A stretch of 64,000 nt of DNA from Candidatus Aenigmatarchaeota archaeon (GCA_016198755.1 JACQIB010000003.1:6767-70766), one strand, 5' to 3'; positions 29,005 through 34,577 are shown, counted from the stretch's first letter. Translations and numbers: made by a program. Notes: generated by a model from the sequence alone, not told the origin.

Positions 29005-29630
29005 GTATGGGACTGGAAGAGTATTGGTCTGTGAGGATAATAGCAATAACAGCTGTTGTTTTTGTTTTACAGATGGTTTTCCCATGGATAACAAACAATT
29101 TTGCACTAAACTCTGCAGAAGCCCTTGGAAAGCCATGGGAATTTGTAACTCATATGTTTCTGCATGGTGGATTTGAGCATATATTTTACAATATGTTTGC
29201 TCTTGGATTGTTTGGTATTATACTGGAAAAACTTATAGGAGGGAAAAGGTTTATGTTTATTTACTTTGTGGGTGGTGTTATAGCTGGTATAGCAGCTTTC
29301 CTGTTTTACCCTTCAGCTATAGGTGCTTCGGGAGCTGTATTTGCTATAATGGGAACATTGGCTGTGCTAAGGCCCAAGTTAACTGTATTTGTTTTCGGTA
29401 TACCAATGCCAATGATAGTGGCTTCGGCAGTATGGATAGCAATAGATATTTTCGGCGTATTTTTTCCAGCAGGCACAGCAAACACAGCACATTTAGCAGG
29501 TCTGTTCTTTGGATTTATTATAGGATTTTTACTAAGAAAGCAGTTTGGTGAACCTTTGTTCAGTGAGAAAGGAAAGCAGGCTTTTACAGACAGAGAATTT
29601 AATAGATGGGAAAACAGATGGATGCACTAA
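29001..29630 (+). CDS. Rhomboid-family intramembrane serine protease
   Basis: Six TM helices, catalytic GASGAVFAIMG and downstream AHLAG His. Confidence 0.85.
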   Translation: MSMGLEEYWSVRIIAITAVVFVLQMVFPWITNNFALNSAEALGKPWEFVTHMFLHGGFEHIFYNMFALGLFGIILEKLIGGKRFMFIYFVGGVIAGIAAFLFYPSAIGASGAVFAIMGTLAVLRPKLTVFVFGIPMPMIVASAVWIAIDIFGVFFPAGTANTAHLAGLFFGFIIGFLLRKQFGEPLFSEKGKQAFTDREFNRWENRWMH

Positions 29631-29758
29631 TGATAGGCAATTTTCAGTTTTCTCTTGCAGAATTTACATATCTTTTGTTTCAGCCCTTTCCAGTGCACAT
29701 TTGTAAGCCTTCCAACTTTTTTTATAGACTCTCCACATCTATCACAAATAGTCTGCAC
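29627..29758 (-). CDS. Possible 43-aa zinc-ribbon protein, not in the ORF track
   Basis: VQTICDRCGESIKKVGRLTNVHWKGLKQKICKFCKRKLKIAYH, with two CxxC pairs. Its GTG start overlaps the TAG of the upstream CBS gene by 1 nt. Confidence 0.35.
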   Translation of the reverse strand: MQTICDRCGESIKKVGRLTNVHWKGLKQKICKFCKRKLKIAYH

Positions 29759-30912
29759 TAAGCCCCGCCCCTATAATCTTTTATCTTTTTAAGGTTCTTG
29801 AATAACTTTGTTTTTATCATTCCACGTTCTTTGAAAACTTCCCTTTCCAAATTATCCAATCCCTCCCCAACAGCATCCCTTGCATCCCATGCCCAGGAGC
29901 GGGAAGTGAAAAGATCCCTTCCTGTTCTCAGTCTTATACGCACAGAATATTTTGTTTTAAGACCCTTGCTTTTGTACTTTTTGAAATGCACAAAAAAGAA
30001 CTGCACCTCCTCAACAGAAGCTATTTTTTTCAGAACATCTCTTATCATCCTGTCCACAGTTTCCAGTGTAAACTCATCCTCTTCATCAAGACCAATAACC
30101 TGATAATAAATCCCCTCTTTTCTGAAACCTGACACAAAATATTCCAGAAGGTCTTTTAGTGTAACAATTCCAATTGGTTTCTTCCCATCTGTAATCACAA
30201 CACCTGAATTTTTATATTTAGTCATTAAGCCGACAACATCAGAAAGTTTTGCGTTTTCTTTTGCAACAACAGGGTTCTTGTTTAGTGCAATACTCACAGG
30301 AAGGTTAGCGACTCTGTCCATTTCAGCAGCCATAGAGAACCAGCCCATTTTTTCCTTTGGTTGTTTTAAAGATTGTATAAGATCAAAAACAGTAACTATT
30401 CCTGCCAAATCTCCCTTCTCGTCCACTACCGGGATTCGTGAAACATTATGCTGGCGCATAATAACCCTGACACTTCCTATGTCCGTATCCAGTGTAACTG
30501 TTTCTGGTTTGGACATTACAAGCTTTGCAACCCCATCCTTAAACATTCTTGTATCGGCTGCAGCTCTAACAACATCGGTTATAGAAAGCAATCCAATAAC
30601 ATTACCCTTTTCCATAACAGGTAAAGCCCTAAGCCCAGTTTGTAAAAGCAGTGTAGCCGCTTCATCTAAGCTTTTACCCCCCTCCAGAGAAGCAGGTTTT
30701 GGACCAACAATAGAAGCTAGTTTTTGCCTGCTTGGGTCTGTTATACCTTTTGATGCAAGAGACTCAAAATTTACCATACCCCTGAATTTTTTACCATCAA
30801 GCAGCGGAACTTCATGAACATGTTCCATTTCCATCATAGAAATAAACTTTGTAACAGGGTCTGAAGGCTTAAGATACAAAAAATCCCTGCTCATTATATC
30901 GCTTACTAACAT
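29758..30912 (-). CDS. Four-CBS-domain protein with C-terminal HPF/RaiA (S30AE)-like domain
   Basis: Four CBS repeats occupy residues 1-260. Residues about 268-365 (YYQVIGLDEEDEF...KYSVRIRLRTGRDLFTSRSWAWDARDAVGEGLDNLEREVFK) follow the beta-alpha-beta-beta-beta-alpha HPF pattern. Confidence 0.65.
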   Translation of the reverse strand: MLVSDIMSRDFLYLKPSDPVTKFISMMEMEHVHEVPLLDGKKFRGMVNFESLASKGITDPSRQKLASIVGPKPASLEGGKSLDEAATLLLQTGLRALPVMEKGNVIGLLSITDVVRAAADTRMFKDGVAKLVMSKPETVTLDTDIGSVRVIMRQHNVSRIPVVDEKGDLAGIVTVFDLIQSLKQPKEKMGWFSMAAEMDRVANLPVSIALNKNPVVAKENAKLSDVVGLMTKYKNSGVVITDGKKPIGIVTLKDLLEYFVSGFRKEGIYYQVIGLDEEDEFTLETVDRMIRDVLKKIASVEEVQFFFVHFKKYKSKGLKTKYSVRIRLRTGRDLFTSRSWAWDARDAVGEGLDNLEREVFKERGMIKTKLFKNLKKIKDYRGGA

Positions 30913-30981
30913 GGAATCACTCTCAAATTTCCCAGTGCCTGTATAAATAGTTGCTTTTGAAGCTTAAATAATAAAATTTTA

Positions 30982-31518
30982 TCATGGCTTGAAGAACTTT
31001 ACCGCATAATATCCAACAGAATCTTTGTAAACAACAGCCCAGAGCATGTTTGCGCGGATATTATGGGCTAATCTGACAGCTCTGCTGAGTTCAGGGAAAG
31101 AGAAAACATAGTTTTCCGGAACAGCAAACACAATCCATTTTGTGTGTTCCCCAGCACTTTTAGGCCCCCTTTTCAGTGGTTTCACACCTTTGTTGTAAAC
31201 CCTGAAGTCACATCCAAACTTAAACCCTGTTCTGGTTGGTAGTTCTTTGTTTCTCAAATCTTTGTAAACAGCATAGCGGAAGCTGAAGCGCGGATCTTTT
31301 TGGTTGCAATACTGGAACATTTCCTCCTTTCCAACCTCTTTTCCTGTCTTATCCACCATAGTTACCTTTCCAATATCCAGTAAATATGCAGCTTCTATTA
31401 ACGCAAGTTCAAGCCTGTCTTCCCTGGGCTTTCCCAGATAAAGCTCTTCAAACAGCTCATTTCCCTTTTCCCTGTCCCATACAACAGCTCTATTTTCTGC
31501 TAAAACAACTTCTATCAT
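30982..31518 (-). CDS. endA: tRNA-splicing endonuclease subunit (EndA paralog 2; Tyr and His present)
   Basis: YKDLRNKELPTRTGFKFGCDFRVYNKG, GEHTKWIVF, RLAHNIRANMLWAVV, aligned by eye to M. jannaschii EndA. Confidence 0.85.
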   Translation of the reverse strand: MIEVVLAENRAVVWDREKGNELFEELYLGKPREDRLELALIEAAYLLDIGKVTMVDKTGKEVGKEEMFQYCNQKDPRFSFRYAVYKDLRNKELPTRTGFKFGCDFRVYNKGVKPLKRGPKSAGEHTKWIVFAVPENYVFSFPELSRAVRLAHNIRANMLWAVVYKDSVGYYAVKFFKP

Positions 31519-31519
31519 T

Positions 31520-32041
31520 TTATCCCACCTTCGGAGATTCTATTATGTAGTAAGTACAGTCAGAGTCATTATCCACAACAGCCCAGAGTGCAACAGATTT
31601 TATATTTTGTGCAAGTTTTATTGCTTTCCCAAGCTGCTCTAAAGCACATGGATAATCTTCTGCTGAAGTAAAAACAATCCATTTCACTGTTTCAGCTTTC
31701 CCAGGTTTTGCACCACGTTCATAAACCCTGAAATCACATCCCTTAAATCCTGTTCTCACTGCTAATCCACGTTCCCTCAGGTCTTTGTATACTGAATAAC
31801 GGGCCATGAAATGCTCGTCCCTTTCAGAACAATAATTCAGAATTTCTTTCAAAGAAAGTTTTTGCTCTCCTATAACTACCTCTAGCTTTCCCCTCTCCAA
31901 AAGAGCTGCTGCTTCTATCTGGTCCAGTTCAAATCCACTTCCAAGCGGATTACCATACCAGCCTGTTTCGTATAGCTCCTTTGCTTCGGGGCCTTCAACA
32001 ACAACTTTGTCATTTTCCAGCTTTCCCGTCAGCATATTCAA
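31520..32041 (-). CDS. endA: tRNA-splicing endonuclease subunit (EndA paralog 1; catalytic His position substituted)
   Basis: YKDLRERGLAVRTGFKGCDFRVYERG, KAETVKWIVF, KLAQNIKSVALWAVV. Separated from the downstream paralog by 1 nt. Confidence 0.8.
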   Translation of the reverse strand: MNMLTGKLENDKVVVEGPEAKELYETGWYGNPLGSGFELDQIEAAALLERGKLEVVIGEQKLSLKEILNYCSERDEHFMARYSVYKDLRERGLAVRTGFKGCDFRVYERGAKPGKAETVKWIVFTSAEDYPCALEQLGKAIKLAQNIKSVALWAVVDNDSDCTYYIIESPKVG

Positions 32042-33737: not shown

Positions 33738-34577
33738 CTATTCAACAAAACCTTCAGCTTCAAGCCATCCTGTAACACCTTTGTAAAATTTTGTCCATGC
33801 ATCGCTGCGCATGAAAGCATCCCTAAAACTTTCTCTCTTCCTCCTTTCCACATTAGCTGAATTGTCAACCACAACAGTTGCAACCCTTTCCAGTTCCACT
33901 CTAAAGTCTTCAATCCCATAGAACCTCCCATACCTTGCAATATCCTCAGAGTCTCTTTTTACTGTAATTAGCGTTGCTTCTTCAGGAGTAATGTTAGGCA
34001 ATCTTTTACTTTTCCTTTCCCTGTTTTCTGGCCTGTTATCATCCATAGAAATCCTCTGTCCAATTATACCAACATCAGGAACCTTTACCAATGTTCTTAA
34101 TCCCCATCTACCTGCAACAAGCGGAGCTAATCTGCCATCAAATATTCCTCCCACAGTAATTGCAGTCTGTAAGGTTTTTGTATCTATTTCTTTATCTATC
34201 ATCTCACCCATTTCAGTGTTTTCTTTACAATATTCTAAAAATTTCATTAAATCAGTGAAGTGATACCTTTCAGCAGCTTCTCGCATAAACTGCCCTGCAG
34301 TTGTTACTGGCAGAACCAGTCCATAATCTGTTTTTAAACAATATTGCAGAGTTCCAACAAATCCACCCTTTCCACAGCCTGAAGTACCCCCAATTGTTAT
34401 AACAGGGTTTTCTGGAACATAGAGTCCAGCATCTCTACCCTGAGCCAGTCTGTCTCTGTACCTTTTTTCTTCTAACCCAGTTACCCTTCTCCCAAAAAAT
34501 AATCTCTCATCAGTCTCCAAATTCCTGATAAATGTTCTTGGAAGCCCCAAATCAATGCCAGTACCCATAAAAACCAT
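33738..34577 (-). CDS. Cytidylate-kinase-like paralog with N-terminal extension and atypical P-loop
   Basis: GGTSGCGKGGFVGTL in the P-loop position; KRDSEDIARYGRFYGIEDF and VVVDNS resemble CMP kinase C-terminal motifs. Confidence 0.45.
   Translation of the reverse strand: MVFMGTGIDLGLPRTFIRNLETDERLFFGRRVTGLEEKRYRDRLAQGRDAGLYVPENPVITIGGTSGCGKGGFVGTLQYCLKTDYGLVLPVTTAGQFMREAAERYHFTDLMKFLEYCKENTEMGEMIDKEIDTKTLQTAITVGGIFDGRLAPLVAGRWGLRTLVKVPDVGIIGQRISMDDNRPENRERKSKRLPNITPEEATLITVKRDSEDIARYGRFYGIEDFRVELERVATVVVDNSANVERRKRESFRDAFMRSDAWTKFYKGVTGWLEAEGFVE

Follow-up and report, generated by a model that had tools for sequence, protein, structure and literature searches.

Does an archaeal gene that joins four CBS domains to a fold resembling that of the ribosome-hibernation factors HPF and RaiA encode a new kind of factor, or a member of a family that is already known? 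The question was raised by a stretch of 64,000 nucleotides from Candidatus Aenigmatarchaeota archaeon, analysed here as a whole and called the window, in which an earlier reading made from the sequence alone (the sequence-only reading) had proposed such a fusion and had remarked that CBS-containing archaeal hibernation factors had been reported. The gene turned out to be a typical and well-conserved representative of a family that has been discovered, solved and tested. The fusion has been published as HibA (PMC13324472) and as AHA (PMC13728122), so the earlier interpretation is supported but was already known. In this family an AMPK-gamma-like adenine-nucleotide sensor is joined to the universal HPF ribosome-silencing domain, and it is this combination that brought attention to the discovery of HibA/AHA in 2025-2026. 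The locus brings no new principle; what it adds are three modest points, concerning the retention of the gene in this lineage, a gap in its annotation and a zinc-ribbon protein as a candidate partner.

The published family

HibA of Pyrococcus abyssi and Thermococcus barophilus was described by Madru et al. (preprint bioRxiv October 2025, 10.1101/2025.10.11.676729; Nat Commun April 2026, PMC13324472; UniProt Q9UYR4, PDB 9SR9 series). Its C-terminal domain occupies the 30S mRNA/tRNA channel, and its CBS module takes three positions on the 50S subunit, in one of which the loop 190-207 fills the peptidyl-transferase centre (PTC); at the CBS3/4 interface the module binds AMP (12 uM) in preference to ADP, and ADP in preference to ATP (PMC13324472). 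The same family was independently described by Souza et al. (EMBO J October 2026, PMC13728122) as AHA, which is HVO_2384 of Haloferax volcanii (D4GWN2, PDB 12DM), with two AMP molecules at the CBS3/CBS4 junction and loop 3 entering the PTC. Work on HibA/AHA has imaged the proteins on 70S ribosomes by cryo-EM, shown that they bind AMP/ATP and inhibit translation, and described the phenotypes of knock-outs (PMC13324472, PMC13728122). HibA family members were found in 47% of 4026 archaeal genomes (PMC13324472), and the AHA paper counted 3160 homologues in 2723 species of 17 phyla (PMC13728122).

Identity of the gene

The gene is a minus-strand ORF that starts with ATG and encodes a protein of 384 aa (43 kDa, pI 9.4; Table 1). 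The sequence-only reading had called this ORF exactly, and it had also correctly placed residues 268-365 at nucleotides 29818-30111. The window, with a G+C content of about 40% throughout, comes from contig C1. The assembly has 890,842 bases (0.89 Mb) in six contigs and is 89% complete, and hibA is single-copy in this genome. A search of the genome contigs for related loci with the single protein found none, and the same kind of search with P0008 returned only its own contig and one spurious bacterial CBS match. A gene for aSBDS, the other factor observed on idle ribosomes of P. abyssi, is present in the genome as well.

Table 1. Positions in the window of hibA, the parts of its product and the adjoining elements
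Feature	Coordinates	Strand	Residues	Basis
hibA/AHA-family gene	29758..30912	-		ORF listing; full-length phmmer match to 9sr9_H
N-terminal CBS tetrad	30118..30912	-	1-265	Pfam PF00571, AF2, Foldseek
Approximate CBS limits			CBS1 1-55, CBS2 64-120, CBS3 127-183, CBS4 205-262	
Extended loop after CBS3, QPKEKMGWFSMAAEMDRVANL	30301..30363	-	~184-204	Alignment to P. abyssi HibA
C-terminal HPF-like domain	29827..30117	-		AF2 of isolated domain, Foldseek, profile search
Basic C-terminal tail	29761..29826	-	363-384	Composition; helix predicted, low confidence
43-aa basic zinc-ribbon ORF	29627..29758	-		ORF listing, profile search of order
TATA-like TTTATA	30942..30947	-		Read from sequence; ends 30 nt upstream of hibA ATG

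When the protein was compared with all PDB chains by phmmer, one match stood out, 9sr9_H (E 3.7e-34, query residues 3-363), a chain of 392 aa that was deposited as 'Dehydrogenase' but whose PDB code, 9SR9, is cited in the paper describing P. abyssi HibA (PMC13324472). The alignment to the second match, 9l96_a, a 406-aa 'CBS domain-containing protein', also reaches the C-terminal domain. Using residues 6-388 of P. abyssi HibA as rebuilt from alignments, BLASTP gave 27% identity over 368 aa with 10 gaps (E 4e-37), and identity to three alignment relatives with haloarchaeal or haloarchaeal-type names was 23-25%. The fusion of CBS domains with an HPF/RaiA-like fold proposed from the sequence is therefore collinear with a HibA protein characterised by cryo-EM, and the fold of its C-terminal domain matches HPF/RaiA. 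We consider it very probable that the gene encodes an orthologue of the archaeal ribosome-hibernation factor HibA/AHA; its binding of ribosomes and nucleotides and its physiological role in this uncultured DPANN archaeon would follow by analogy with the characterised proteins.

Domain architecture

Pfam recognised four PF00571 stretches in the 384-aa protein (E 1.6e-43), in keeping with the four CBS domains claimed earlier, and nothing beyond them. In the full-length AF2 model (pLDDT 84.7) the CBS part folds into four beta-alpha-beta-beta-alpha units, and the best Foldseek matches of this model were the CBS tetrads of SriA, MJ1225, AMPK gamma and Dri (E 1e-20 to 1e-15), with CBS tetrads only, and no HibA entry, among the best 50. 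As the Foldseek structure library reaches to 8 April 2026, the C-terminal domain was also modelled alone.

The secondary structure predicted for residues 270-383 is E-H-E-E-E-H, and the corresponding elements of the full-length AF2 model are E270-273, H280-298, E303-313, E321-330, E334-341 and H344-383. Modelled in isolation, the C-terminal 119 aa reached a pLDDT of 88.1, with the elements E5-8, H15-33, E38-49, E55-65, E69-76 and H79-97. The top 31 PDB matches of the isolated domain in Foldseek were all HPF, RaiA/YfiA/protein Y or chloroplast pY, many of them from ribosome complexes (best E 1.7e-5; TM 0.67-0.77 normalised to target; rmsd 2.7-3.6 A over about 100 columns), and dsRBD and ACT-like folds appeared only at ranks 32-50. 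The sequence-only reading had named such a fold comparison as a check on itself, and because structural likeness to HPF/RaiA was found, its interpretation stands.

Sequence profiles gave a divided answer. A profile built from 20 C-terminal domains (A2) and run against PDB chains matched the HibA chain 9sr9_H (E 7.3e-17) and 9l96_a (E 3.5e-14), and 14 of its 16 remaining matches were bacterial HPF/RaiA/protein Y chains (E 0.03-1.1), most of which are matched over the whole domain and in register. The Pfam model PF02482 (Ribosomal_S30AE, gathering score 23.7 bits), on the other hand, did not match the isolated 119-residue domain at E <= 10 and found nothing at the hibA locus when the whole 0.89-Mb genome was scanned; the same model matches 12 of 14 control genomes, including Hfx. 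volcanii and S. acidocaldarius. Its sole match in the genome (C5:112601-112690, E 0.04) contains an internal stop and is probably noise. The S30AE pattern that had been noticed in the sequence is thus upheld by the fold and by sub-threshold profile matches, but not by Pfam PF02482. The signature string quoted with that pattern is present, with residues 325-361 reading RIRLRTGRDLFTSRSWAWDARDAVGEGLDNLEREVFK, and it spans those columns of the C-terminal part that are best conserved in an alignment of 38 family sequences (R327 invariant; T330, A347 and E356 at least 90%). By its fold and by transitive homology via HibA, the domain belongs to the wider HPF superfamily (archaeal branch), and it lies outside the Pfam PF02482 family as currently modelled. 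Since the Pfam and NCBIfam models miss the HPF domain, HibA of Aenigmatarchaeota is annotated only as 'CBS domain-containing protein'.

The basic tail comprises 22 residues, with 8 K/R and 1 D/E (pI 10.7; pLDDT 57-69). By itself the HPF-like core lacks such a basic character (pI 5.95), so any binding to rRNA must use local patches together with the tail.

A different job for the protein has to be weighed against these results, namely that of a CBS-tetrad nucleotide sensor working away from the ribosome. It might then control transcription, as the CBS-only HhpR (family CM-3) does, or regulate an enzyme as one of its subunits, and its C-terminal domain would be a generic alpha/beta module that binds RNA or a ligand. 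Such a job would agree with the many functional contexts in which CBS tetrads are found (PMC13728122), with weak, partial NCBIfam matches to HhpR, IMPDH, PPase and other CBS proteins, and with the dsRBD and ACT-like folds lower in the Foldseek ranking. All of the NCBIfam matches are, however, far under their cut-offs (for HhpR, 39.9 against 520 bits), the closest solved full-length protein is HibA and not HhpR, Sri or AMPK gamma, and the 31 best matches to the fold of the C-terminal domain are without exception ribosome-bound HPF-type proteins. We regard a non-ribosomal sensor as very improbable and retain the assignment to HibA/AHA.

Probable nucleotide site, CBS3 loop and proposed action

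Several positions in CBS3 and CBS4 stand out in the 38-sequence alignment. The G-h-h-T-x-x-D (ribose/phosphate) motifs of CBS3 (G171, T174, D177) and CBS4 (G248, T251, D254) are invariant or nearly so, as is an SR(I/L)PVVD motif, and R153, S158 and R159 are invariant or at least 90% conserved. These conserved CBS3/CBS4 motifs appear compatible with the published nucleotide site.

Both phmmer and BLASTP gave an ungapped alignment of residues 186-203 to residues 190-207 of P. abyssi HibA, and as judged from this alignment the extended loop after CBS3 occupies the same place as the HibA 'PTC loop' and AHA 'loop 3'. AF2 modelled this loop with less confidence than any other stretch (pLDDT 57-71, residues 181-200), and its segment KEKMGWFSMAAEMDRVAN is strongly conserved among the Aenigmatarchaeota relatives in the 38-sequence alignment, as ERMxWxSMAAEMxRI. 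What KMGWFSMAAEMDR has in common with the P. abyssi and haloarchaeal loops is length, position and one conserved Glu; the sequence is otherwise unlike theirs, and insertion into the PTC is therefore not assured.

If the protein acts as the characterised family members do, its C-terminal domain would block the A and P sites, and the basic tail, provided that it is equivalent to theirs, may be directed at the mRNA exit channel. The CBS tetrad would dock on the 50S subunit, where the long CBS3 loop could enter the peptidyl-transferase centre. With the HPF-like domain blocking the A/P sites and the CBS tetrad docked on the 50S, a single protein would bridge both subunits, and idle 70S ribosomes would be kept intact and silent. 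Adenine nucleotides are probable ligands of the CBS3/CBS4 pair, whose counterpart in P. abyssi prefers AMP to ATP, and such binding would provide a possible link to the energy state of the cell. Even for the characterised HibA/AHA proteins, no on/off switching of binding by nucleotides has been demonstrated.

Surroundings of hibA

Upstream of hibA and on the same strand lie genes for an archaemetzincin and two tandem tRNA-splicing endonucleases (EndA), and downstream, in convergent orientation, lie genes for a rhomboid protease, a methyltransferase and a class II aminoacyl-tRNA synthetase (aaRS). The order archaemetzincin-EndA-EndA-hibA-zinc ribbon, with rhomboid and aaRS convergent, is kept in genome G010 and partly to largely in G005. 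None of these larger neighbours (archaemetzincin, the EndA pair, rhomboid, methyltransferase and aaRS) suggests a link to hibernation. The TTTATA sequence sits in the 69-nt spacer between hibA and the upstream EndA gene and is a candidate archaeal promoter element.

The two EndA paralogues are found at 30982-32041 of the window (minus strand), at 4874-5937 of L017 and at 9-1457 of L008. Elsewhere in the window (33738-34577, minus strand), an ORF of 279 aa beside a cytidylate-kinase-like gene had no Pfam match at E <= 0.001.

Distribution in the Aenigmatarchaeota

The sequence-only reading had suggested mapping the distribution of the fusion, and this was done within the order and the phylum. 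Of the 41 genomes of the order, which measure 0.5-1 Mb, 38 have hibA, among them all of the high-quality ones (15/15); the three genomes that lack it are 63-83% complete. In a phylum sample of 151 Aenigmatarchaeota genomes, the HPF-like domain was found in 110, and the full fusion, with ORFs of about 350-430 aa, in about 86-93 among the matches listed. That hibA is near-universal in a highly genome-reduced archaeal lineage argues that DPANN cells, which depend on a host, benefit from storing idle ribosomes.

A stand-alone HPF-like ORF of 103-151 aa occurs in 22 genomes, all from families f12, f15 and f16, where, among the matches listed, the CBS domains are encoded by separate CBS-only ORFs, mostly of about 265-290 aa, and no fusion is found. 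These three families are a natural 'split' state of HibA. Previous work placed stand-alone HPF-like proteins 'mostly in DPANN and Nitrososphaerales' and described HibA and stand-alone CBS modules as usually excluding one another within a genome, with domain loss or splitting (PMC13324472). Both the split families and the genome under study agree with the published exclusion (PMC13324472), the latter having no stand-alone CBS tetrad, its other CBS ORFs measuring 146-207 aa and 510 aa.

The genomes with the split state are G044, G046, G048, G049, G069, G078, G103, G104 and G106 in f12, G050, G066, G068, G088, G098 and G161 in f15, and G052, G061, G090, G109, G120, G123 and G163 in f16. In genus g25 of family f9, three hibA homologues are read through one or two in-frame TAG codons (G070:C6:27612-28721, G092:C5:47449-48576 and G144:C26:2171-3292), which could be due to recoding, pseudogenes or assembly error.

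A zinc-ribbon gene behind hibA

The ORF that follows hibA encodes a small basic protein, MQTICDRCGESIKKVGRLTNVHWKGLKQKICKFCKRKLKIAYH, with a CxxC-x22-CxxC arrangement, 12 K/R and a pI of 10.1, and its GTG start and the hibA stop codon have one base in common (TAGTG). In G010, G005 and G002 the equivalent ORF begins 0-8 nt after hibA or within its end, and in G002 this is so even though the other neighbours differ. Four Cys and a VGRL motif are invariant in the homologues. A profile built from four sequences detected the gene in 28 of the 41 genomes of the order (E <= 4.5e-15), and a comparison of coordinates placed 26 of these 28 copies directly downstream of hibA on the same strand. The copy in G027 lies at the start of another contig, and in G023 hibA and the zinc ribbon are separated by a 341-aa LAGLIDADG-type ORF (L027 1344-2369, G023:C4; PF14528, E 3e-17) that looks like a free-standing homing-endonuclease gene splitting the pair. 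The order-wide profile search did not find the zinc-ribbon gene in families f2, f4 and f8 or in G020, where the rhomboid gene directly follows hibA. Within the order, then, the linkage is strong but not obligatory.

Outside the order, the zinc-ribbon gene occurs in family f12, which is without the fusion protein, and there its neighbours are genes for AdoMet synthetase, a small membrane ORF and an RNA-type metallo-beta-lactamase. The idea that it tracks the HPF domain everywhere is ruled out, as the zinc-ribbon gene and the stand-alone HPF gene of f12 are about 88 kb apart or on different contigs. Searches of Pfam and PDB with the ORF gave no match, which leaves an identification as a known ribosomal protein or RNA polymerase subunit unsupported by either. 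In a large protein database the family is represented only by 'hypothetical protein' entries of Aenigmatarchaeota and by unnamed metagenome proteins. The words zinc, operon and synteny are absent from both HibA/AHA papers, neither of which refers to this ORF (PMC13324472, PMC13728122), and the zinc-ribbon gene behind hibA is the only fresh detail of the locus.

The micro-protein, being genetically coupled to hibA, is a concrete candidate for a new partner. We tentatively propose that the two genes form a translationally coupled operon and that the micro-protein may be an accessory hibernation factor acting on the ribosome with HibA, or a zinc- or redox-sensitive modulator of HibA binding; we think this rather unlikely as it stands, and it is offered as a lead. 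In gamma-proteobacteria, the small basic protein RMF cooperates with short HPF. If the proposal is true, an accessory zinc ribbon would be functionally analogous to RMF in that pairing.

The same gene pair enters into another explanation, in which the HibA homologue acts mainly as a constitutive ribosome-associated factor together with the zinc-ribbon protein and is not induced by stress. It could then be an anti-dissociation or storage factor for a host-free stage, or a translation throttle tied to nucleotides supplied by the host. Near-universal presence of hibA in 0.5-1 Mb genomes that have lost much of their regulation speaks for constitutive action, as do the tight two-gene unit with the basic zinc-ribbon ORF in this order and a TATA-like element of its own with no evident regulator nearby. 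Against it, the zinc-ribbon gene occurs in another family without adjoining hibA, and about ten genomes of the order, such as G020, keep hibA without the zinc-ribbon gene. Because the zinc ribbon is found apart from hibA and is missing from these genomes, it is no obligatory partner. We consider the constitutive explanation improbable, and keep to the reading of the gene product as a HibA/AHA-type hibernation factor in comparing it with other systems.

Comparison with known systems

The closest characterised protein is HibA of P. abyssi, with which the protein shares its architecture, its length (384 vs 392 aa) and a collinear alignment throughout. It differs in its low overall identity, in the sequence of the loop, in its DPANN host and in the zinc-ribbon ORF that stands behind the gene. 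With AHA of Hfx. volcanii it has in common the fusion of four CBS domains with HPF, and the G-h-h-T-x-x-D motifs of CBS3 and CBS4 are kept; the three aligned relatives with haloarchaeal or haloarchaeal-type names are only 23-25% identical, and AMP binding, seen in the AHA structure, is here predicted from these motifs.

Bacterial HPF/RaiA (YfiA, protein Y) and chloroplast pY resemble the protein in the fold of the C-terminal domain and in weak but consistent profile matches over the whole of it. They differ in sequence, with only 11-19% identity, and in the PF02482 model, which gives no match here. The domain is moreover fused to a CBS tetrad, whereas bacterial HPF is stand-alone or carries the long-HPF dimerisation domain.

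The hibernation factors SriA-D/ARC of Methanosarcina acetivorans (PDB 9ZNF/9ZNG/9ZNI) and Dri of Pyrobaculum calidifontis (9E6Q), made of CBS tetrads alone, share the CBS tetrad fold, and in Foldseek the tetrad described here is structurally closest to Sri/Dri, AMPK gamma and MJ1225. The sequence match to the Sri chain 9znf_4 is nevertheless much weaker than that to HibA (E 1e-12 vs 4e-34). Sri (about 260-340 aa) and Dri, which has two tetrads in 655 aa, are without an HPF domain, whereas the Aenigmatarchaeota protein combines an HPF-like domain with one tetrad only.
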